Below are positions 29,874 through 63,191 of a stretch of DNA of 64,000 nt, in pieces; position 1 is the stretch's first letter, and each line of letters begins with the position of its first letter. The translations under genes and the position numbers were made by a program. The DNA is from Cyanidioschyzon merolae (lineage: Eukaryota), in the NCBI GenBank assembly GCA_000091205.1, contig AP006496.2. One strand, 5' to 3'. The notes below the pieces were generated by a model. That model saw nothing but the letters and a program-made list of their open reading frames with translations. It was not told where the DNA came from and ran no database searches.

Positions 29874-32574
29874 GCGGCATCGAGTGCGGGGTACTCAGCC
29901 GCTGCTGCTTGTACAGAAACGTATATGAATCGTAAGTATAATTGGCAACAGATATCGAGACAGGTGTGCAGCAGCGAAGCCAGCCGCGATACAGGTACTC
30001 CAAGCGCACGCCCTGCTCAGTTCTGAGGGCGACTCCGAGGCGAGGTTGTTTGCGCGATCGCGACGTTGACGACGCCCTAGGACGGCATCATCGCCAGCGG
30101 GGGGACGCTCACGCATCGCAGAGCACCCGACCAGAGGCCAGTGACACTTCCAGGTGCTTGACACCCGAAATGAGGACCCAGCTTATGCTTCGTTCCTCGC
30201 TGCACGGTGCAGGTTCTCTGGCACATGGGATGGTTCTCAGTTTCTACACCGACGTCTGCATATTGCTTCCGTTTGACGGTGCAGAACCGATGGATCAAAG
30301 CAGGATACCCCGATGAGGCTACTTGTACCAGCCGTTTGGACAGGCACTTTGGTTTCTTCATGGGCGTTTCGATGCTCTCGCGCTCACAGTACAGTGCACC
30401 CGAATGGAAAAGCGACCTGGTCCATCTTGCGCTCCTACGGTAGTAGCGTTGACTACCCGCGCTAGAGGGAATCGCCAGTGCGTGTGCTGCTGTAGACTTG
30501 TTACAGAGGCGCGACGACTTTGCGATGACTCTCATGGTGTCGGTTGGAGGAAATATTGTTCTTCCAGCGAGTCTATCAGGTACCAGTGCGAAGCATTTCG
30601 AGGAGTTGCCTCTGTCGTGGCACCGTGTGGGACGGAAATCGGAGCGCCCAACACAGCGCTTTCCGTGAAGGTGCCGCAGCCGCCTTTTCACCTACTTTAC
30701 GCTCCAATTTCCATCTCAGATGCCATGCCAGCAAGAGGCACGCATCAGCCATACCTGGGGGCTTCTATGCCGCATCGACGTAACGTGGACGCTTGGCCGA
30801 TGTTGCGGCTCTGGGCAGTTTCGCCGCAGCCTTGCCCGAGAGCACGCATTCGCAGCTCGCCGTTGGGTGCGTGCCAGGCAATCAGTGCCCTATGGCCTGT
30901 TGCTGGGGTGCTGTCCAACATGTCACTGCGAGCGTGTCTGTTGGCGTCGATGCCGCTGCGCGATGCACGCATCGTGCACGACACGCATTCGCCGACACGG
31001 ATGCATGAACAGTTTGCAATGGGTGCTATGTGTACTGTAGACCGTTTGCGCAAGCTGCTAGTCGCTGTGCCTAGTGCTCTTCACGGACGCTTAGAAACGC
31101 AGCGAATCATAGTTTTTCAAGAATAAAATTTATTCCACTCTCCCTATGGTGCACTGCAGGAGATCGACATCACGATGCAATGCATAGTATAGATCGTGGA
31201 CGAATTGCCCGTACGAGATATATTCTTAACTGAACAGTGCACGGTGGAATGGATTTCTCCTTCAGGTCAGTCATAGCACCTTGCTCCAACGGTTGAGGAA
31301 CACTGGAAGAACCAAGAATATGCGCTCCGCGCCAAAACCCGATATTCTCAAAGCGTGCTTGCGGTCAACGATAGAACAACATCCGTAGATAACCTTTTAC
31401 GGAAACCAAAAGCGATGATAATAGACACCATGGGTGTGTCTGATACTCTATATCTTATTCGTGTGGTCCTGAAAAAACAGGGATAAAATCGCAAAAACGT
31501 CCTAGTTCAAGCACGGCCATCTTCGACCGAAATCGCAACGCCAGCGTTTCTGGAACGTCGCAATCGGGATGAAGCATGGGGGCGTCGGGTTGTTTCCTTT
31601 TTCTTCGACGAGACTCTGCTCGGATAAAACCGTCGGAGCGTATATGGGTATGCGCGGAGAGGGAGCCCGTTGTATGTACGACCGAAAGTCGAATGCGAGG
31701 CCCAAGCAGCAACAGCATTCACTTTGTCGAATTATTGATGACTTTCACCGGACACCTGGCTACGTTCCTCCGCTGAACCACAAGACATTTCACCATTCCG
31801 ATTGCGTCCGAGTTTTTGCCGATTCTGGCGGTTAATGGAGCTCCTTTTCATTCCTCTGTACAGCCCGCGGTTGAAACCCATCGAAGCAGAGTTTTCTCTT
31901 GTGATACGCAATGATCGCTGCATTGGGCGAATCGCTGCAGCGTTCATCACACAGTGACGTACGGAGACACAATTCGTCTCCCATCCGCAAGTCCTACTTC
32001 CTCCAGGAACGTCCTCGCCTACCGGCACAATGGAGTGTATTCGATTTCGAAAATAAGTGGATGCGCTGGGGTGCACACATCAGAACGTCGAAATGGAGGC
32101 GAAAGTTCGAGGACTTCTTGAATTGATGAGTTCCACCACAGGTAACGGACACGTGGAGTGCGTGAACCGAGACTTGCACGCCACGAATTATATGAGGCGA
32201 TGTGTTGTGCTGATGACGAGACTTAAAGAGCTGACGCCATCCAGCTTTGTGGAGCAGCCTCTCAGGCAGGAATTGCGCCTGGATGAACTGAAGCCGATAG
32301 CAGGTGAGCGATCCAAAAAGGCTGGGTGGTGTCAGCACGAGGGTATCCATTTCATCCACATGACCGTAGAACATTTTGCGTTTGACTTACATACATAGGT
32401 TCTATTCTGGAGTGACAGAAAGAGCTTGTGGTTGGCGATAACTCTATCCCAGTTCGTGGCAGACGTTATCTTCGGGCACCCGTGCTTGGTACGCGTCTTG
32501 CGACGTTCTAGTTGATCTTGAAAGCGCTGCTTGCACTGAATGGAGTGCGCCCCTGCGGATGCAAACGTGTACCT

Positions 32575-46731: not shown

Positions 46732-47563
46732 TAGCAATGACGACACTCATCGCGCGGGAGAGGCGGTGGAGGTGGCGCTCTATGAGCAGCACAGATATTT
46801 CTCGATGTATCATTGTAAACGCGGGACTTGTAGATTCGTGTCTTTGGCACCAACGGACACCTCTTCTGTACAGAGCGGTGCATGCTGGAATGCTTGTACC
46901 AGTTTATCCTTATTGTTTTCGTTTGTTTCTCGTGCAAGGAGTTCAATAAAAGGAATGTGTCTCGTGGACTGGACAGAGATCGCGGAAAGCTTTGATGTTG
47001 TGGTCGCTATTGGCTTGCGATAATGAGCGACCTGACTATCCCAGGGCTCGGTATTGTCGAGCGTTGGGCATGCGCGCTCTCAGGGCCGTATCGAGAAGCG
47101 CGGAATACCTGGCACACTTCATGCCGTGAGCACACGAGCGATCCAGTGGCACACGCGGACGATCTTTGGTAGGTGTACATGGTGCTGCACTGGGGTTGCA
47201 AAGCGTTTCTTCTGCATGAAGGCAAGAGGCGTGCATTCGCTAACTTGTTCAATGCGTTGGAAAATAAAAAATGACTCCCAATTCGCGTCATGTGGTGGTA
47301 GCCTCCAGCGATGGATGTGCGGTTGCGCGCAAGAGCTGCCTGGTCTCTGCTGCTTCGAGGAGCGCGTAGAACGAGTGCAGGAATCGATGCTGCAAGATTC
47401 ACGTCAACTCATTCAGGACGACGTACAGGCATCACGAGCTCTGGTCAAAATTGAAATACGTAGAGAAGAAGAGAGCGCAACAGAGACGGATGCATGAAAT
47501 GGTGTACGGTATGCTGAGCGTACGTCAGCATGGGTTCCAAGTGAATCCAACGGGCTTGCACAG

Positions 47564-48789: not shown

Positions 48790-51700
48790 GCCAAACGCCT
48801 TTCGAAAGTCGAACGACGTCGGGCGTGTACAGTAGCGGCGACCGGCGGCCTAGACGTAACGCTTCCAGCTGGTGTGCAGACGCCTCCCAGCGTTTCTCGG
48901 CGGGCCACGTACTATTTCTTCTAATTTCGTCTCATATACTTCTACTTTTCGAGATTGTCCAACAAAATTCCCTCTTGTCTACTCTGGAGGTCTGTTCTCC
49001 AGCACTGCCCATCTCCGGATATTGATAGCGGCGTTAAAGTCACGATTCACAAAATCCATACGTCTCCTGCAATCTCTGGTTGTACTTTCTGATGCAAGTA
49101 GTCCACGAACTTTCGCTCTCCTTTCAATTTGCTCTTCCGTCAGCGGTTCGTGCTTTGCTATTTCCGAACGGCTCGTTGGCACTTTTCCATCTCCACTGTC
49201 TGAAGTGTACAACCCATTTCATGGTGTGTATAGGACGTTCGGAACTCATGTACAGGTATCGTGAAGAAACGCCTTGCGCACTCTTTGTATGTTCTTGCCG
49301 TTGGAACTGGCGCAGTCCCTTTTTTCGACGCCGAGCACCCTGCTCTGTACGCTACTACGAGCCTCTGACTTTCATCCTCCTTCAGGGCGCTCAACTGATT
49401 GAAAAAATTCGCGAACGCCCGCTGCTTCCCACAATACAAGTTCATTCACAAACGAGCCCACCGGGGCTTGGTATACTCCTCCCACAGCGCCTCCCAATGA
49501 GCAGCGCGAACTTTCATGAATTTCCGAAAAGCTTCAAAGTCCGCTCCTCGGCTAGTCACCTCGCTCAAAGCTTCCATGTGATCCTTCACTCCTGAATTCC
49601 ATTTCTCGATTTTCTTCCTTGCATTCATTATACCGGATTCTCGATAGTATCTTGGTCTCGAGAACCTCAAAAGACGCATGTCTCTCTAACGAAAGTTACC
49701 ACCAGTACTATCTTCCGCACGCTTCGGTGCTGCGATGGTGATGATATTCGTATTCCCGGGGTCCGCGCCAACGACAAAGTCGTTATCTTGTACTTTCTGT
49801 GCCGCAGGATCCGCCTTCTTGTTTTCTTCATGCTTCGTCGCGCCAACGACAAAGTCGTTATCTTCCACTTTCTGGGTCGCAGGATCCTCCTCTTTCTTTT
49901 CTTCATGCTCCGCCGCGTCAACGACAATGTGGTTATCCTCCACCTCCTGCGTCGCAGGATCCTCCTCTTTCTTTTCTTCATGCTCCGCCGCGTCAACGAC
50001 AAAGTCGTTATCCTCCGTCTCCTGCGTAGCAGGGTGCGCCTCCTTCTCATCTTCATGCCTCGCCGCATCAACGACATGGTCGTTATCTTCCACCTCCTGC
50101 ATGAGAGGATCCTCCTCTTTGTTTTCTTCATCCTTCGTCATGGGCGCAGTCGAGGGCGGAATTGGACGATCTTTCTTCAACCGCCGATAGTGTATACACA
50201 TGGCTACTCCATCGGTTTCGATCAACCCAGTAAATACCTTTTGTTTGGTCTCTTTGAGACGTTTGAAATTGAAGATATTCTTCCAGTACGTCTCCCGGTT
50301 ATCACCGGAGAACTCCTTGTTGCTAACATTGAACTCCGGACAGATCTCCTTCATGATGCCATGAAGGATCCTGGAGTCGATACTCACAAAATGTGACTTG
50401 ATGTTGCACAACGGAACCACGTTGAACCGCTTACCCATTAGGAAAGCCTTCTGTCTCTCCCACTCTTCATTTTTCCTCACTCAGCTTCATCTCCGCCTTG
50501 CGTTCGAGTTCTCGATTCAGGAATACGAAATAGAGCAGGATGAGTTGATAGCATCTTTTTTCATCTTTTTTGAACTCTGATATTTTTTCTGTTGGATTCG
50601 CCAGCCCCATGACTGCACGGTGCTCTTGTATAACCGCACGGATTACAGAAGCCTCATTCGTGCTCTCGTTTGGCGCCTTCTTGTCGACAAATTCGACCTC
50701 ATCTTCATACTTTCGATCGTTCGTGATGCCATTGATAATCGCCCATATTCCTTTGCGAGACAGGCCCGGGTAGAGTGGAAACACGGTGCGTATTATGAAA
50801 CGTTCGAGGTTCATTGTCAAATGGTTCTTCAGGTTCGTGATGTGCTTCATCGCCCCGTAGCCGTAAATACCCCGGTCACCCTTGTATCGAGTACCGTTGA
50901 AGCTGTAAAAGGGATGTTTTTCGTGGGGGCCATGCACTAGCACATTTTCCCTCCGCGTTTTCTCTCCACCAAGCATCAGGTGTCGAATAAAGGTGATGTC
51001 GAAAAACTCGTCTGGAATCTCGACCGTTTCGATGTGCGTCACGTCTTTGTACATCTCCCTCGCCAAATGCATCAGCCCTGACGACGCCTTGACAATACTC
51101 TTGGAGTACGAGTCGACGCGTTTTTCGATAGCGTCTCGCAACTTTTCCCTGTACGGATCCTTGATATGGCCAAGAAGAAAGGCTCTCATCACCTTCTCGT
51201 CGTACAGTCGTCTTTCTTGCCGCCTTCGACGTAGGACCTCTCCCCTTCGGTTCTTTTTCTTCTCCTTTTCTTCTGGGCTCGGCACTGTTTTTCGTTTTTT
51301 CTGGCAGCCAGCGATACTGGGCCTCCAGGATCGTCGACTTGCTTTTTCATAGCTTTCCTTTTTCAGTTTTTTTAAATGAACCCGCTGTGAATGCTTCGGT
51401 TATATACTGCGAAAAAACACTTGGCCAGACTTGTTTGAGGGTTGAAACACCAATGAACTGAAAACTATATTTTTGTTCGACTCCGACGCAAATACAACTT
51501 TTACAGCTGAACAACACGCTCCTGGTCAGCATCGCGGTTCCTTTCAACGGCGGCATGTGCATCGCGTCAGTTGACTGCCTGATCTCCGAGATGCGTTCAT
51601 TAAGCGCAATGCGTCCATCGCACGAGACGCCACTCCAGTCGATGAAGGACACGTGTCCGACACCCCGCATTGGCACATGCGTGTTCGCATCGCATTGCAG

Positions 51701-51790
51701 CCAAACTAAAGTATCGTAGATAGGAAACTCACGTAGAACGATCTCTTGCTATAGACGCTGTCGCTGGTGCCGAAGCTACTGCCCATCGCA
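48790..51790 (-). mobile_element. Fanzor/TnpB-like (OMEGA-family) nuclease element, copy 1; AT-richer than surroundings; frame-disrupted
   Basis: The encoded protein pieces carry a basic NLS-like N-terminus (EKEKKKNRRGEVLRRRRQERR), the RuvC-I motif '[15 protein letters not shown]', the mid motif 'VHEFRTSYTHHE' and the RuvC-III motif 'FVNRDFNAAINIRR'. Non-coding homology to copy 2 extends about 500 bp 5' of the ATG and about 190 bp 3' of the stop. Local GC is clearly lower than the flanks. Confidence 0.65.
48979..51350 (-). pseudogene. Fanzor/TnpB-like RuvC nuclease coding region, copy 1 (split into 5 ORF pieces by frameshifts)
   Basis: The ORF pieces are 50467-51285, 49686-50480, 49446-49679, 49158-49445 and 48979-49212, all on the minus strand, and concatenate into one Fanzor-like protein. 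The breaks after KLSEEK and after EKCQRAVRK are absent in copy 2. The breaks at GNFR/MRLL and near the N-terminal MKKQ ORF are shared with copy 2. Confidence 0.6.
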
Positions 51791-52563
51791 GTACCGCCTG
51801 GACATACATGGAAATGTTGGGACCTAACGCGATACCTCGTGATGCTTCTATCAAAAGCGTAGCGTTCTCTGCGGCTTACCGTTGTGTGGATGACGTATGC
51901 ATCACTCTTCTCACTAGGAATTTCGTTAGTTTTATTCATCGTAACCAAACTAGGTACGGTGGGATTCCTGAACACGGACATACGTTTAATGCCGATGCTT
52001 GTCACGCATGCTACACTGACGCTGGAATGAGGAACTGACCTGAATTGTGCTTCTATCCTGCGTCATAGGCTGGTACTGATGACCGTTCAAGTCATTTCCA
52101 TGCTGCTGTCGTTGTCTAACTTATGGTGCCTGCTTCGTCCTCCGGATCCGGTGATCTTGGCAGAGGCATAGCACACTCGACCGGCCCCCTGCTATCGGTT
52201 TCAGCTTCTCCTTGTTCACCTCTGGCCTGGGAGGTTCCCCCAGAAAGTTGGACCGCGTCAGCTCCGCCGGTCGCGCGTTCATCACCATTCATCATCTGAT
52301 ATTGATGGCGTTTTGTCTGAAACGCTCGTGATAGAGCTGAGGTCAAGAAGCGATCAATCTTGACCGACGCTATCAAACGAGCGGTACCAGAAGCTGAGGG
52401 CTGCAGCCGGCACCAGGTGCTCTGATGCCTACATGCTGGCCGTGAATAGTGCGTGACGAAGTCGCACAGCATGCCACGGTTTCCTAGTACGTAAACCAAG
52501 CACGTATTCGAAACGTTCGGGTTCAGTGTGATGACGAGTCGCCGCTACGGCATTCTGGGAAAA

Positions 52564-54240: not shown

Positions 54241-54425
54241 TTCCGTCTCTCAGGGTCCTGCTTGTGTGGAGTACACGTTGCCCAGCAAAGCACCAGCGTA
54301 GAGCAGTCGCCACAACGATCTCCGCGCCTGTGCGCTGCGGCTGGCGCACTGCCGCATCTCATCGAGGCGAGATCGCGGCGCCTGGAAGTGGACATCAGCG
54401 GCGGCAGCGGCGGCAGCGGCAGCAG

Positions 54426-54626
54426 GTGTCACGAGCACGGGGTGCGGACATATACCAACGAACATACGGTGTGTCGATGGGTGCTGCTTTGGGTGTCACG
54501 CGCACGGGGTTCCGAAGTATATCAGTGAACATACGATGTGTCGATGGGCGCTGCTTTGGGTGTCACGCGCACGGGGTGCGGACGTATATCAGTGAACATA
54601 CGGTGTGTCGATGGGCGCTGCATTGG
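54426..54626. repeat. 67-bp tandem repeat x3 upstream of the thioredoxin gene
   Basis: The unit 'gtgtcacgcgcacggggtgcggac.tata.cagtgaacatacggtgtgtcgatgggcgctgctttgg' is repeated three times contiguously, about 190-430 bp 5' of the thioredoxin ORF. Confidence 0.8.
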
Positions 54627-56406: not shown

Positions 56407-57075
56407 TCAAGCACCAGCGCTGTAACAATGCTGGCTGGGATCCGAGCCCAAGATGACGTAGGTGTAAATTTCGTCGTTCAGCATTTGTGCGGTATACGAT
56501 GCGATAAACTTGTACCGACCAGAGGTCAGCGCTGAACGGAATACCCGTTCCATCTCTGGAACCACCAGCATTGCAGCTTCAAAGGCCTCCCGTCCAAAGA
56601 GGCCCTCGCCGCCGTATGCATACGGACTCGACCAGTTGAAATAGTGCGCTGGCAACTTTGTGGCATGCGCAGCGCCCATATAGTCGGTGCTGGTCCAGCC
56701 GCCCACGGCGAGCGCTGACTCGACAGCTGCCCGTCCGAGCGCACTGCAGTTGCCAGCGGCCACGTCTGCTATCGGACACTCCACCATGTTATCCACGACG
56801 TTCGCAGCACCAATGATCAGTCCCTTGTTCAGACACAGGTCATGATCAAGGTCTGCAAGCGCATTCATGATGGTAAAGTCGTATTGCGACACGTTCAGGG
56901 CCATAGCGTCGGTCTCGTTGATGTAGATGCCACCGAGCGCCCTGCTCGGCACCCGCAGGATACTCTCTTCGAGCGTCTCGAGGTTCAGCGGCGTAACCAC
57001 TGTCGCAGCACAACGAGACAAACATCCCGCAAGCCCCCACAGGCTAAGAAAAGCGAAAAGAAGCCACGCTCGCAT
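56407..57075 (-). CDS. secreted protein, paralog A of a small family (signal peptide, N-glycosylation sites, conserved C-terminal LGxDPSQHCY)
   Basis: 222 aa from the ATG at 57075, which starts 'MRAWLLFAFLSLWGLAGC' (a signal-peptide-like hydrophobic N-terminus). It shares 'LN.SQ..FT..NAL..L...LCLN', 'CSAL', 'GWTST', 'YFNWS' and 'LGSDPSQHCY' with the ORF at 62544-63191. The ORF-track extension to 57528 is probably non-coding. Confidence 0.5.
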   Translation of the reverse strand: MRAWLLFAFLSLWGLAGCLSRCAATVVTPLNLETLEESILRVPSRALGGIYINETDAMALNVSQYDFTIMNALADLDHDLCLNKGLIIGAANVVDNMVECPIADVAAGNCSALGRAAVESALAVGGWTSTDYMGAAHATKLPAHYFNWSSPYAYGGEGLFGREAFEAAMLVVPEMERVFRSALTSGRYKFIASYTAQMLNDEIYTYVILGSDPSQHCYSAGA

Positions 57076-57439
57076 ATTAATCAGAACAGAGCCACGTTCC
57101 AGGAAAAACAGCAATGTCTCTATCGTGGGTGGTGCTGCATTGGGGATCAAGGCGCACCGCGTGTGCGTGCGTCTGTGCGCGGAGCGCCCTGCGGCGAACA
57201 GGCCCCGGTGCAGGCCCTGCGAGACGCCGCGGTGGCACCACCGGCGCACGCCTCGGGAGCCGGCACACTCGATCCGTGGCGATCGAACAGGCCCAGCGGC
57301 AGCGCCAAAATGGGCGTTCGGGACGTCGGCGGCGCCACCAGCATCAGCGATCGGCGCCAGATTAGGAAGCGATGCGTGCCGGCGCGCGCTGTTTCCGACG
57401 TTCCAGGCGTCGACGCGTCGATGTCGGTGGTGGTGGCTG

Positions 57440-60250
57440 CGGGCGCCTGCATCTCCACTTAGGTGAGGGCGGTACTGAGATGGGCAGGAGCGTCGGCACC
57501 AGCGACATAGCATAGAGCAGGAGTGCATTCTACGTGAATTTCCAATCTAGGACACCTGATTTCAGCTGCAGTGCGATGCGAACACGCATGTGCCAATGCG
57601 GCTTCGGACACGTGTGCTTCATCGATCGGAGCAGCGTCTCGTGCAGTGCACGCATCGCGCTCGGTGAGCGCACCCCGGAGATCAGGCAGTCCATTGACGC
57701 GACGCGTATGTCGCCAATGAGGGGAAACGTGATCTTGATCAGTAACGTGTAGCCGCAATGTAAAATTGTAATTTCATTGAGTTCGTATCCAGGTATAGTT
57801 TTTATTTCAATTGTGCTTCACCCTTAAAACAAGCGTAGTCAAGTGTTTTCTCGCGGTATATAACAGAAGCGTTCAAAGAACGTTCTTTTTCAAAAAAAAA
57901 TCTAAAAAAAGGAAAGTTATGAAAAAGCAAGTCGACGATCCTGGAGGCCCAGTGTCGCTGGCTGCCAGAAAAAACGAAAAACAGTGCCGTGCCCAGAAGA
58001 AAAGGAGAAGAAAAAGAACCGAAGGGGAGAGGTCCTACGTCGAAGGCGGCAAGAAAGACGACTGTACGACGAGAAGGTGATGAGAGCCTTTCTTCTTGGC
58101 CATATCAGGGATCCGTACAGGGAAAAGTTGCGAGACGCTATCGAAAAACGCGTCGACTCGTACCCCAAGAGTATTGTCAAGGCGTCGTCAGGGCTCATGC
58201 ATTTGGCGAGGGAGATGTATCGCGACGTGACGCACATCGAAACGGTCGAGCTTCCGGACGAGTTTTTCGACATCACCTTTATTCGACACCTGATGCTTGG
58301 CACAGGGGAAGCGCGGAGGGAAAATGTGCTAGTGCATGGCCCCCACGAAAAACATCCCTTTTACAGCTTCCAGGGTAATCGATACAGCGATGACGGAAAT
58401 ATTTACACATGCGGGGTAATGAAGTACATCACGAACCCGAAGAACCATTTTACAGTGAACCTCGAACGTTTCATGATACGCGCCGTGTTTCCACTCTACC
58501 CGGGCCTGTCTCGCAAAGAAATACGGGCGATTATCAATGGCATCACGAAGGATCGTAAGCATAAAGATGAGGTCGAATTCGTCGACAAGAAGCCGTCACG
58601 CAGGAGCACGAATGAGGATTCTGTAATCCGTGCGGTTGTACAAGAGCACCGTGCGGTACTGGGGCTGGCGAGTCCAACGGAAAAGATATCAGATTTAAAA
58701 AAAGATAAGGAAAGATACTATCGCCTCGTCCCGCGATATTTTGTGTTTCTGGACCGAGAGCTCGAACGCAAGGCAGAGGTGAAGCTGAATGGGAAAAATG
58801 ACGAGTGGGAGAGACGGAGGGCTTTCCTAATGGGAAGCGCTTCAACCTCGTTCCAATGTGCAACATCAAGTCACATTTTGTGAGTATCGACTCCAGGATC
58901 CTTCATGGCATCATCAGGGAGATCTGTCCGGAGTTCGATATAAGGGAGACAGAGTTCACCGGTGAAAACCGGGAGACATACTGGAAGAATATCTTCAATT
59001 TCAAACGTCTCAAAGTGACCAAACAAAAGGTATTTACTGGGTTGATCGAAACCGATGGAGTAGCCATGTGTATACACTATCAGCGTTTGAAGAAAGATCG
59101 TCCTGGTCCGCCCTCGGCGAACCACGAAGATGAGACGGAGGCGGTTCCTGCCACGTAGAAAGTGCAGGAAAACGACTTTGTCGTTGGTGCGGCGAAGCAT
59201 AAAGATGAGGAGGAGGAGGATCCTGCGACGCATGAGGTGGAGGATAACGACTTTGTGGTAGGCGTGAACCCCGGGAACACGAATATCATAACCATCGCTG
59301 TATCCAAGCGTGCAGAAGATGGTACTGACGGCAACTTGCGTCAGAAGACATGCGACTTTTGAGGTGCTCGAGAGCAAAATGCTATCGAGAATCCGGTATC
59401 ATGAATGCAAGGAAGAAAATTGAGACATGGAATGCAGTAATGAAGGATCACCCGGAAGCTTTGAGCGAGGTGACGAGCCGCGGCGGGGACTTTAACGCTT
59501 TTCTGAAAATCATGAAACTTCGCGTTGCTCGTTGGGATGCGCTGTGGGAGGAGTATACAAAGCCTCGGTGGGCTCGTCAACGTATGAAACTATACTGTGG
59601 TAAGCGGCGCGCGTTCGCGAATTTTTTCAATCAGTTGAGCGCCCTCAAAGAGGATGAAAGTCAGAGGCTCGTAGTAGCATACGGAGCAGGGCGCTGGAAG
59701 ATCCAAAAAAGGACTACGCCAGCTCCATCGACAAGAACGTATAAGGAGTGTGCACGGCGTTTTGCTACAATACCTGTTGATGAGTTCCGAACATCGTATA
59801 CACACCATGAACGGTGATGTACGCTCCAGAGAGTCGAGATGAAAAAGCGCCAGAGGAGCCCTGAGGATATAAAAAAGTACGGAGCGCAAACGGAAGAGCA
59901 AATGGAAAGGAAAGCGAAAGTTCGTGGACTGATCGCATTGGCGAGTACAATCAATGGCAAGAAACGTATCGAATTCGTGAACCGAGACTTTAACGCCGCC
60001 ATCAATAGAAGGAGATGTGCGGCGATGGAGACGAGACCTGCGGAGTTGACAAGAGAGAATTTTATGGGGCAACCTCTCAAGGTGGAATTATACGATACGA
60101 AGCTGAAGTCAGTAGTAGGTGGCCGGTCGAGAAAGACGGGGAGGCGTCTGCATTTCAGTTGGAGACGTCTCGTCTAGGACGAGTTCGCCGCCACTGCTGT
60201 ACACCGCTGGCGGCAGCGTTGTTCTTTTGGAAAGCGTTTGTTGTTCGTGG
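57440..60250 (+). mobile_element. Fanzor/TnpB-like (OMEGA-family) nuclease element, copy 2, inverted relative to copy 1
   Basis: It has the same architecture and flanking non-coding homology as copy 1 at about 80-90% nucleotide identity. The RuvC-I motif reads '[15 protein letters not shown]' (Asp to Asn). The RuvC-III motif 'FVNRDFNAAINRRR' is present. There is an in-frame TGA at 59816-59818. Confidence 0.65.
57919..60180 (+). pseudogene. Fanzor/TnpB-like RuvC nuclease coding region, copy 2 (frameshifts plus in-frame stop)
   Basis: The ORF pieces are 57984-58883, 58805-59158, 59162-59362, 59350-59817 and 59839-60177. There is a 1-bp deletion in 'ggaaag' after AFLMG relative to copy 1, and a TGA within '...THHER*CTLQRVEM...' where copy 1 reads HHEMGCTLQTVEM. 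Confidence 0.6.
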
Positions 60251-62543
60251 TGCTCTTGCCGTTTGTCTCATGCGCGTTTGAAGGTGCGAATTTAGCAAGT
60301 CGAGTTGGGCTCGTCACGGGTGTGTGTGCACCGCAGGCGCGGGCAACGTGGTACACGACGCTCGTACCTCCACGGATGCTTCCAAGTGAACCACTGGTGC
60401 CGGACTGGTGTTCCTCTCAGAGATAGTGGTTTAACCGTTTCCGTTTCCCCGCGGTTGCTGAGCGCAGAAGGGACAGCTTTGCTGTACGAATGGACGAATA
60501 TCGCTTCGAGGTGCACTGTCCAGCATACCGGGCATAGAGGCTGATAGATCGGGCGCTTTGGTATCGGTGCGTTGCGAAACCGCGCAAGGTTCAAGAAGCA
60601 TGCAGTCCGCTTTACTTTCTGGATTTTTGGCACCAGTGCCCATATACGGTTGCTCGAACCGAATACAGTGCTTTCGCTAGGCGCTAGCGGCAACGGAGCT
60701 CAATGATCATGCGCTGCTCCAGTGTCAGAGAGAAATGGAGCTGGTGTGCTGATTCGGGTGTATTCGCTGAAGTTTTGATTTCTTTCCCTTGTGATGCGCA
60801 CCAGCTTTTGCGGACATCTTCCGCGCCCGCTTCCTTTTCGTATCTCGCATATCGGCCTCGGAATACGCCGGTGCCGTGTCTCGCCTCAGCTGCGGTGTCA
60901 GCAGCGGAAGGATGTTGATGACAGCGTTGGAGCCCGCGTTTCGTTGTTTCCCACTGCTGTTGGAGCATTTTACGCAGAGGCGCAAGTTCCTATCTACGAT
61001 TCGCTTTCCTTTTTCTGCTTCATTGTATGGAGCGTCGGTGTGCTCTTCACAGCCGTCATACGTGACTGTGGTGAGGTGTTTTCGTATATCCATCACTAGA
61101 CCCTTTCTCCTCCTCCTCCAAGGTTTTTTTGCGATGTGGCGCATGAACGCTTGCATCAGCGCTCGGTACGTGTCCTCGACTGGTACAGATGGCTCTTTTC
61201 GATGTTTTCATCAGGCGCCGCGCCCGGTGCTGTGCCCAGTGATCACGGCTCGCGTCAGACGATTCCCTCGGCGAGTACTCTGTCCACCGCACATGCAAGC
61301 GAAGGCTGTTCCACTCGATACGGGATTAGCGGCACCCGATATCGTCCGTAATCAAACAAGTGCGGGAAGGGTAATCCAGTTTAGAGAAAAGTTGAGAACA
61401 TTCGATCCGTCTCCGTTCCCTTCGCGCACAGCAATGACGCACTCTCTAAAGGGAGCGGTCGCTTCGATGACGCAAGTCGCACTCTGAATCCAAGACGATT
61501 TTCCATGCGAACACACGGGACGAGAGCCCGCTGGAGCAGTTCCCGCAAAATGTTTCGTACAGGTGTGAGATTTCTTTTCGTAGACGACCGCTAAAAGAGG
61601 CGGATTTGTGTTTTTCGAACGGAATCGATAAATTGACATGACAAGTTCAGTGGTCTTTTGGCAAGAGTTTTTGATCAAGAGGTCATGGTGCGACGTCGAG
61701 GATGCTTCTGCGTCATTCCAGCGGGGCGAGTTGCCGCGCGCACGAGTTTCCATGCAGGATATTGATCGAAAACTTGAAGAATACATGGTTTGAGCGTGGG
61801 GCACGTAGGGATCGGAAAAGGACGGAGGAACACAGGTATGCATTGGATAACGATATCGGTTATTTCACGAACCCTCGCTCGAGGGCGTCGCAAATCATCG
61901 CGATTCAACGGACGTCACGAATTCCAGCTCTGTACTGTATCGAAAGAGCCTCCCAAAGTAAATATGGCCGAGAATCACTGACCTACATATCCATCCGTAC
62001 GCCCGTATTGTTGCGCTTAGAATACCGCGGTTGTAGACCCAAGAACGCGTTCGGAATAGAGTCGGAAAGCAGGAGCAGAGTGAGCAGTTCAGTGCTCCAG
62101 TTGAGAGCCTGGCACGCGTATGAGCTCGACGCGCGCATCCATCGCCTGCCGCCGTGCACGGCAATTTGCCAGCGGCGGAAATCATCGCGCCATCGACAGG
62201 AGCCACTGTGCGCGCTGAACGACGTCGCCTTGCTGTGGGCGCGCCTCGACCCGAACGCGTCGGTGTTTGCTTCACAAAATCGCGTGCAGCAAAGGCATCG
62301 AAAGACGGGGATTCGGAGCGGCTCATGAGCGCGCGCACCATGGAATGCGTGACACGTGTCCCACAGCGGCGCGGTGACGTGCACGTGCCGAATTTGGCAG
62401 CGCTGTGTGTTGTATTGGGATGTGGATGCGGTGCGAAACGCTCGGTGTGTATCGACACGAACGCATTTGCATGTTTTTTTGCGACTGTAGCAGATACTTC
62501 AAGGCTAACCTGTGTCTTCGACTACAAGTCGTTTATTATTCCG

Positions 62544-63191
62544 ATGGTTTCGAACAGGTCTGCGTTTAGGCTAGCCGTGCTCGCTCTTGCGCTGATACTC
62601 TTTACTATGATCTGGGACGCTGCTGTCTATCGGGGAACCTCAGCGCTGCCGCTGAGCACCCAGGTACGCGCTGCAGAGAACAGAACGCACCACCTCCCCG
62701 ATGCCGTTGCAGCGGCGCTCAACTACACGCAGTTCGAGTACACGCTCGCAAACTCACTGTATAAAATCAACCCGCATATATGCCTGAACTATGCCTTGTC
62801 AGTTGCGGCAGCGAACCTGGCGGATCTCCTCACCTACTGCACGCCAGATCAGGTTGGGAATAACAGCTGTAGCGCTCTGACGCCCGGTGCTATCGCTCGG
62901 ACGCTGCTCGCTGCGGGATGGACCAGCACGAATATCCAGCTCGTGGACCTCGCAGCCAAGGTGCCAGCAAGGTATTTCAATTGGTCGACCAGTGACGGGC
63001 TCTCGGGTCTGCAAGCGTACCACGTCGGTCTTCAAGCTGCACCATACGTTGTGAACCAACTGCGGCCTTACCTACATAGTGGACAACTCAACCTGGTTGG
63101 GGTAGGTGCAGTGGCTCTCCGCACAGACTACGTGTACGCGATGGTTGCCCTGGGCGGGGATCCATCGCAACACTGCTACGAAGCGAGCTAG
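62544..63191 (+). CDS. secreted protein, paralog B of the same family as 56407-57075
   Basis: 215 aa from the ATG at 62544, which starts 'MVSNRSAFRLAVLALALILFTMIW' (signal peptide). It has several N-x-S/T sites and the same conserved blocks, ending 'LGGDPSQHCYEAS*'. Confidence 0.5.
   Translation: MVSNRSAFRLAVLALALILFTMIWDAAVYRGTSALPLSTQVRAAENRTHHLPDAVAAALNYTQFEYTLANSLYKINPHICLNYALSVAAANLADLLTYCTPDQVGNNSCSALTPGAIARTLLAAGWTSTNIQLVDLAAKVPARYFNWSTSDGLSGLQAYHVGLQAAPYVVNQLRPYLHSGQLNLVGVGAVALRTDYVYAMVALGGDPSQHCYEAS

Follow-up and report, generated by a model that had tools for sequence, protein, structure and literature searches.

Two Paralogous Element Copies Lie Head to Head in the Window

The window, a stretch of 64 000 nucleotides from Cyanidioschyzon merolae, harbors two pseudogenized copies of a Fanzor1 element of the CMe-1A type: copy 1 occupies positions 48790..51798 on the minus strand and copy 2 positions 57468..60245 on the plus strand. 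Both were delimited by homology and profile matches, copy 2 additionally by family conservation. The two copies are real paralogues that are 81–86% identical over about 2.9 kb (51798..48830, minus strand, versus 57468..60196, plus strand) and differ by some 415 substitutions; they are arranged head to head, 5.7 kb apart. Homology of copy 2 to the family loci L001 and L002 begins at 57679 and 57839 and ends at 60209 and 60219, respectively. Across 54 copies of the family, conservation drops at positions corresponding to about 60235–60250 of copy 2, and the family profile A2 described below matches five ORF fragments of copy 2 between 57999 and 60084. Elsewhere in the window, five ORFs are identical to proteins of C. 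merolae 10D (BAM81342, BAM81344, BAM81345, BAM81351, and BAM81356), and these exact matches include CmDnm2/DRP5, β-tubulin, CMN269C, and a thioredoxin. Scanned over its full length for Rfam families and tRNAs, the window gave no match.

Directly upstream of the RuvC-I strand, copy 2 carries 1.9 units of a 75-bp (25-amino-acid) tandem repeat (59115..59256, plus strand), of which copy 1 has 5.0 units (49763..50137, minus strand). The region matching this repeat in P0001, the uninterrupted relative introduced below, is disordered in our structural model (residues 385–469, pLDDT <50). Terminal inverted repeats were sought in the copies and none were found, which is in line with the literature. The 3′-terminal 250 nt of the family are strongly conserved as DNA and include a terminal hairpin that occurs in two sequence variants; it is found in copy 1 (GACGTCGTTCGACTTTCGAAAGGCGTT; 48794..48820, minus strand) and in degraded form in copy 2 (60216..60237, plus strand). 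RNAalifold predicts helices in the 3′ end, yet these are essentially devoid of covariation (−0.07 kcal/mol) and for this reason we do not claim an omegaRNA.

Profile and Predicted Fold Place the Protein Family in Fanzor1

To both copies, a preliminary description of the window had assigned a Fanzor protein. A word-indexed homologue search yielded 40 relatives, all of them metagenomic and mostly 54–77% identical to the frame-repaired query; among these, P0001, the nearest relative with an uninterrupted frame, is an ORF of 752 codons. A profile search over 1.84 billion cluster representatives retrieved 2016 representatives at E ≤ 1e-3, and the alignment termed A2 comprises 84 diverse, mostly full-length family members. 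Seven columns of A2 are invariant (P292, D359, D484, G486, G623, P637, and E656 in P0001 numbering) and D725 is nearly so, with Asp in 82 of the 84 sequences. The A2 profile matches three Fanzor1 proteins of solved structure, PpFz1 from Parasitella (9cf0; E = 5.9e-22), SpuFz1 from Spizellomyces (8gkh; E = 3.1e-15), and GtFz1 from Guillardia (9cer; E = 2.1e-10). Moreover, when P0001 was modeled with AlphaFold2 on the basis of A2, the confident model obtained (pLDDT 83.2, pTM 0.82) gives seven Foldseek matches in the PDB at E ≤ 0.001, all of which are Fanzor1 structures (about 1e-16 to 6e-14; TM-score up to 0.74), followed in the list by Cas12 structures at E of about 1e-2. Because the profile matches and the fold matches of the model agree, we assign the family to Fanzor1, which bears out the earlier reading and specifies the type.

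Several other searches were silent on this point. Pfam returned no significant match for the ten ORF fragments, for frame-repaired copy 2, or for the intact relatives, and the OrfB_Zn_ribbon/Cas12f1-like_TNB family (PF07282) stayed below threshold at E = 0.23. Searches of the PDB by phmmer with the repaired protein and with the narrow A1 profile missed Fanzor; only the diverse A2 profile, made after the search of the 1.84 billion representatives, detected it there. A precomputed PF26935/DUF8286 tag was weak and uninformative.

The element itself fits a family that is already on record. CMe-1A is a Fanzor1 family of C. merolae, represented by about 150 copies whose identity to the consensus is about 80% each; it is about 3 kb long, has no terminal inverted repeats, and includes some copies that are still intact (Bao & Jurka 2013, PMC3627910). 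The window copies share with it the host, the Fanzor1 assignment, the length (about 2.8–3.0 kb), the absence of terminal inverted repeats, the inter-copy identity of about 80%, and the mixture of intact and broken copies. No difference was found and, matched through this published description, they appear to be members of CMe-1A. One feature of the signature given by Bao & Jurka, D-X-[TS][TS]-X-X-[C4 zinc finger]-X-RD, is missing from them, namely the C4 zinc finger: the CMe-1A copies read TSYTHHELGCTLQ...VRGLLALVST...NRD and lack CxxC pairs. The family consensus retains a single Cys (LLWC) in this region, and some relatives keep a CxxC, e.g., P0043 (TTCTSC).

Copy 2 Carries Asn at the Position of the RuvC-I Asp

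Within the whole window the 15-mer GGCGYGRACCCCGGG has exactly two matches, GGCGTGAACCCCGGG in copy 2 (59261–59275, plus strand) and GGCGCGGACCCCGGG in copy 1 (49755–49769, minus strand). In a codon alignment that takes P0001 as the reference (CDS at L002 6001–8259), the RuvC-I strand motif of copy 2 reads GTA GGC GTG AAC CCC GGG (VGVNPG; 59258..59275, plus strand; family consensus VGADPG) and that of copy 1 GTT GGC GCG GAC CCC GGG (49772–49755, minus strand). The codons that had been quoted for both copies, VGADPG versus VGVNPG, are correct as written, and the G-to-A transition described for the Asp codon is real: it lies at 59267, the first position of an AAC codon (Asn; 59267..59269, plus strand), where copy 1 keeps GAC (49761..49763, minus strand). 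Since the outgroup loci L001 and L002 have GAC like copy 1, AAC is the derived state. A second codon difference adjoins the first, GCG to GTG (Ala to Val) at 59264–59266 of copy 2; the two codons had been shown in the preliminary description, but the exchange was left undiscussed.

The affected residue was identified by counting along the HMM alignment with the chain of MBP-SpuFz1 (offset 394). The A2 profile aligns the Asp of vGvDPGr (D484) with SpuFz1 D383, the Glu of vDEFRTt (E656) with SpuFz1 E541, and the Asp of NRDlNAA (D725) with SpuFz1 D606; in SpuFz1, D383, E541, and D606 constitute the catalytic triad, which coordinates two Mg2+ ions (PMC10432273, PMC11423790). As all three positions align with this reported triad, the earlier identification of the substituted residue as the catalytic Asp of RuvC-I was right. 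In Fanzors, the canonical RuvC-II position is characteristically taken by Gly or Pro, and the Glu is relocated (PMC10530073). Both features are found here in 84 of 84 members: G623, in the motif vvAYGaG, occupies the canonical RuvC-II position, and E656 is the alternative Glu. Copy 2 keeps the two (59683..59685 and 59782..59784, plus strand), and copy 1 keeps E656 but has an Arg in place of G623. The RD motif of RuvC-III reads NRDFNAAIN in both copies, with the Asp at 49039–49041 (minus strand) in copy 1 and, intact as well, at 59986..59988 (plus strand) in copy 2.

The catalytic Asp of RuvC-I, which is absent from copy 2, is present in copy 1 and in all 84 members of A2. In the same column, 37 of 39 close homologues have Asp and the remaining two have Gly. 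At the level of codons, 66 genomic copies, taken from 72 metagenome loci plus L001/L002, show GAC (60), GAT (3), AAC (2), or TAC (1). A check of Asp versus Asn elsewhere, which had been proposed along with the original observation, hence finds Asn to be uncommon, with none among the 84 diverse members and two among the 66 genomic copies. The counts indicate that the RuvC-I Asp has been strongly constrained in the active lineage of the family, as it is retained in 63/66 (95%) genomic copies despite a nucleotide divergence of about 18%.

Both Copies Are Pseudogenes

The reading frame of copy 2 is broken four times on the plus strand: by a 1-nt deletion in a GGGG run at codon 284/285 (58830..58832), by an in-frame TAG at codon 397 (59156..59158) where relatives have CAG, by a 1-nt deletion in CAGAAAGAC at codon 510 (59342..59346), and by an in-frame TGA at codon 667 (59815..59817) where relatives have GGG or GGT. 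Together with D484N, this amounts to two frameshifts, two in-frame stops, and the loss of one catalytic residue. The Asn codon lies between the first stop and the second frameshift, inside an ORF fragment of just 66 codons (59162–59362).

Copy 1 has been hit in a comparable manner. On the minus strand it carries a 2-nt deletion at codon 272 (50471..50473), a TAG at codon 509 (49686..49688), a TGA at codon 589 (49446..49448), a 1-nt deletion at codon 680 (49173..49175), and a TAG at codon 745 (48979..48981), i.e., two frameshifts and three in-frame stops. Additionally, it has lost the family-invariant Gly through G623R (49344..49346) and shows D655H, an exchange directly beside the catalytic Glu. 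At a poly-A tract, the frame of the upstream ATG (MKKQVDDPGGPVSLAARK) loses register with that of the main ORF in copy 1 and copy 2 alike. Each of the four frameshifts of the two copies falls in a short homopolymer run, where a sequencing error is conceivable; the stops that arose by substitution speak against this, and both copies are pseudogenes.

In the preliminary description, copy 2 was considered the more degraded copy, with its in-frame stop as part of the argument. The stop is real (TAG, 59156–59158), but it is one lesion among several and copy 1 is comparably affected. Judged by coding capacity, the ranking does not hold, given two stops in copy 2 versus three in copy 1 plus G623R and D655H; it stands only narrowly, by the number of derived point substitutions (111 in copy 2 versus 77 in copy 1). 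Non-synonymous and synonymous changes number 99:60 in copy 2 and 77:50 in copy 1, a ratio of about 1.6:1 that suggests largely relaxed constraint in either copy. Transitions exceed transversions by a factor of only about 1.3, and CpG transitions account for just 5–10 of the derived changes per copy. With a ratio this low there is no RIP-like bias, and RIP or CpG-driven mutation was ruled out on these two figures.

The Asn Codon Is Part of a Rare Haplotype

Among the 66 genomic copies, the only other carriers of Asn are L050 and L052, two near-duplicate metagenome contigs. Over 11 nt around the codon, copy 2 has three rare derived bases in common with them (GTG/GCG GTA GGx GTG AAC), so that a rare haplotype of 15 nt including the Asn codon also occurs in this metagenome copy from environmental Cyanidiales; in a 360-nt segment, all other loci share at most one rare state with copy 2. 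L050/L052 were considered as orthologues of copy 2 and rejected: their overall identity to copy 2 is about 82%, other loci are closer to it, and the DNA on either side is unrelated. Both are broken as well, the longest plus-strand ORF at each locus being 382 codons. The short Asn-bearing tract of copy 2 and L050/L052 is probably identical by descent, and it could stem from an old Asn-carrying sub-lineage or from gene conversion among copies. Because the haplotype is found in a non-orthologous element, the substitution may predate the insertion of copy 2 or may have come by gene conversion instead of arising in place. The haplotype, one short tract in extent, is the sole part of the locus that holds residual interest.

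Consequences of the RuvC-I Substitution

An intact CMe-1A protein would be a Fanzor1-type RuvC nuclease which, by homology to the solved Fanzor1 enzymes, would be guided by an omegaRNA. Its predicted triad comprises D484 (RuvC-I), E656 (the relocated Glu of RuvC-II), and D725 (RuvC-III), with G623 at the canonical RuvC-II position, and the RuvC-I Asp would bind catalytic Mg2+ as it does in characterized Fanzor1 and TnpB enzymes. In copy 2, a G-to-A transition has turned the codon of this Asp into one for Asn, and D484N is one of many substitutions gathered without constraint at the protein level. Because the exchange is accompanied by two frameshifts and two nonsense codons, we regard it as functionally inconsequential at this locus, and we put the probability that both copies are decayed, non-coding CMe-1A Fanzor1 copies in which the Asp-to-Asn change has no functional effect at about 0.92. 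Since the copies fit the listed features of CMe-1A, the finding comes down to a missense substitution within a single dead member of an old, abundant, and already known transposon family: the element has been known since 2013 and the change in copy 2 is ordinary decay. Decay is to be expected for most of the roughly 150 CMe-1A copies, and a catalytic missense change in an already broken copy belongs to the expected background.

It had been predicted that copy 2, if expressed, would be nuclease-dead. In E. coli RuvC, the D7N variant binds Holliday junctions and does not cut them, and an exchange of a metal-binding Asp of RuvC for Asn classically retains binding and abolishes cleavage. By analogy, Asn at the RuvC-I position would most likely abolish cleavage in Fanzor1 as well; replacement of the RuvC-I Asp by Ala in ApmFNuc (D324A) led to a loss of cleavage (PMC10530073). 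At the third catalytic position, an exchange of Asp for Asn is tolerated and even beneficial: GtFz1 naturally has N658, and SpuFz1 D606N performs above the wild type (PMC11423790). Because position III of Fanzor1 tolerates Asn, inactivation by the same exchange at position I is a prediction, and whether an Asp-to-Asn exchange means a dead enzyme depends on the position in Fanzor1. Both the loss of cleavage through Asn and the RNA guidance of the intact protein are expected from characterized relatives, and for the locus of copy 2 the question of a dead nuclease is moot.

These considerations also bear on three other explanations. Copy 2 had been proposed as a possible domesticated derivative, that is, a dead Fanzor that retains RNA-guided binding without cutting. 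The intact state of its other two catalytic residues and of the invariant Gly is compatible with such a role, as is the retained binding of RuvC variants like D7N. A domesticated binding-only protein is nevertheless untenable because the Asn sits in a fragment of 66 codons: four lesions disrupt the frame, copy 2 has more derived substitutions (111) than copy 1 at a relaxed ratio of 99:60, the 3′-terminal hairpin is degraded, and the other carriers of the haplotype are themselves broken, with no plus-strand ORF above 382 codons. We therefore give this proposal next to no credence. Hardly better placed is the idea that the enzyme tolerates Asn at RuvC-I or is even activated by it, comparable to the natural Asn of GtFz1. 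It draws on the third-position Asn of GtFz1, on SpuFz1 D606N, which surpasses the wild type (PMC11423790), and on the presence of the Asn haplotype in at least two non-orthologous copies. These enzymatic precedents concern RuvC-III and not RuvC-I, the RuvC-I Asp is found in 84 of 84 members and Asn in broken copies only, and ApmFNuc D324A is without cleavage (PMC10530073), all of which makes tolerance very improbable.

An origin of the Asp/Asn difference in a sequencing or assembly artefact, or in directed mutation of repeats such as RIP, would agree with the single transition and with the location of the frameshifts in homopolymer runs. Yet AAC and the rare changes that flank it were seen independently in two metagenome assemblies, the genome of C. 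merolae 10D is a finished assembly, and the roughly 415 substitutions combine a transition:transversion ratio of 1.3 with few CpG transitions, so that such an origin is extremely unlikely. Rather than being a private hit that arose in place, the Asn allele might also mark an old CMe-1A sub-lineage that went on being copied to new sites after losing the RuvC-I Asp, or gene conversion might have spread it. This is improbable, too. If it held across the approximately 150 genomic copies, it would speak for Fanzor nuclease activity being dispensable in cis for propagation of the element or, alternatively, for position I of Fanzor1 tolerating Asn like position III. One useful result of the analysis is that the triad of a divergent, zinc-finger-poor clade of Fanzor1 is mapped residue by residue (D484/E656/D725, with the former RuvC-II position taken by G623).

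Relation to Characterized RNA-Guided Nucleases

The best structural match of the P0001 model is SpuFz1 (PDB 8GKH, 9CEU–9CEZ; Foldseek E of about 1e-16, TM-score 0.72–0.74 normalized to the target). The two proteins share the DPx motif of RuvC-I, the relocated Glu in DE[FY]xTS, and an NRDxNAA-like RuvC-III motif, but their sequence identity is only about 15%. Moreover, the CMe-1A protein is without a recognizable C4 zinc finger after DEFRTS, where SpuFz1 has CPRC...C..C, and unlike SpuFz1 it carries a variable insertion of 25-amino-acid tandem repeats ahead of the RuvC-I strand. Inverted repeats of 30 nt are present in SpuFz1 elements (PMC10432273), whereas none were found in the window copies. 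With GtFz1, copy 2 has in common a natural replacement of Asp by Asn in the catalytic triad of a Fanzor1 (PMC11423790); in GtFz1 the Asn is located at RuvC-III and the enzyme is active, whereas in copy 2 it is located at RuvC-I and the gene is broken. Bacterial TnpB proteins (IS200/IS605, IS607) and Cas12, whose structures are the next Foldseek matches, resemble the family in the RuvC fold and the D-E-D triad. From these the CMe-1A protein is set apart by the lack of a significant match to OrfB_Zn_ribbon/Cas12f1-like_TNB, by its eukaryotic host, and by the relocated Glu of RuvC-II.

Mosaic Identity and the Asn-Bearing Haplotype

When copy 1 and copy 2, the two head-to-head CMe-1A-type Fanzor1 pseudogenes, are compared in inverted orientation, their identity is patchy along the length: The 5′ halves are ~90% identical, values toward the 3′ end fall to 73–82%, and a single 150-nt block (58013–58162 vs the 51256–51107 region) reaches 99.3%. 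Gene conversion acting on the neighboring inverted copies could account for this mosaic. The haplotype of copy 2 that carries Asn in place of the RuvC-I catalytic Asp (59258–59272) also occurs in a non-orthologous family copy, represented by the near-duplicate hot-spring-type metagenome contigs L050 and L052. Copy 2 and this relative have three rare derived bases within 11 nt in common, despite a total identity of only ~82% and unrelated flanks, which suggests that the haplotype derives either from an old Asn sub-lineage or from a short gene-conversion tract.

Variable Segments of the Coding Region

On its N-terminal side, the RuvC-I strand is directly adjoined by a 75-bp tandem repeat encoding an acidic 25-aa unit, with five units in copy 1 (49763–50137, minus strand) and 1.9 units in copy 2 (59115–59256, plus strand); unit counts in relatives differ from both. 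Every unit closes with a duplicated start of the RuvC-I strand, DNDFVV[G/D]A, and the repeat region is predicted to be disordered. Further upstream, a hypervariable poly-A tract (~51290–51315, minus strand, in copy 1; ~57950–57975, plus strand, in copy 2), ranging from A6 to A10 across the window copies and loci L001–L074, separates the main ORF from an ATG (MKKQVDDPGGPVSLAARK...) on its 5′ side. The two window copies share with 22 of 35 loci, among them L002 (the locus of P0001, with no other interruption), a main ORF that is read in the −1 frame with respect to that ATG. The junction has an A_AAA_AAC-like sequence and may represent a hotspot for indels or, alternatively, a place where programmed or transcriptional slippage occurs.

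Downstream of RuvC-I, the C4 zinc finger, which is part of the Fanzor/TnpB signature of Bao and Jurka (PMC3627910), was not found in the CMe-1A clade in the A2 alignment of 84 diverse family members (window 59791–59990). Instead of CxxC...CxxC, the clade has TSYTHHELGC...VRGLLALVST at this site, whereas some more distant relatives in the same alignment retain CxxC.

The 3′ Terminus and Neighboring Features

Family homology ends ~60–70 nt past the stop codon, just beyond a terminal hairpin (48794–48820, minus strand, in copy 1; 60216–60237, plus strand, in copy 2) that is also found at the 3′ ends of the compared loci. Its structure is kept in two sequence variants, a CGUUCGA-CUU-UCGAACG type and a CGUUUUUC-UUUU-GAAAAGCG type, and of the six copies tested, five have z-scores between −1.9 and −3.9; the hairpin of copy 2 is degraded (z 0.18). 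Together with a predicted long-range helix, AGUAGUGGGUGGC/GCCGCCACUACU, for which covariation is almost absent, it constitutes a candidate, unproven omegaRNA scaffold.

The window also holds two Fanzor1 remnants from this family that are far older and more decayed than copies 1 and 2: one at 47179–47483 (plus strand; profile positions 456–555), just past the 3′ end of copy 1, and one at 32093–32269 (plus strand; profile positions 553–608). Copy 2 is adjoined by an intronless 373-aa ORF (56407–57528, minus strand), and on its other side lies an intronless 345-aa ORF (62154–63191, plus strand); the two are paralogous, with a common C-terminal domain (...GGWTST...YFNWS...G[SG]DPSQHCY). A 67-bp tandem repeat of three units (54425–54626) is located between a thioredoxin-like gene and copy 2.
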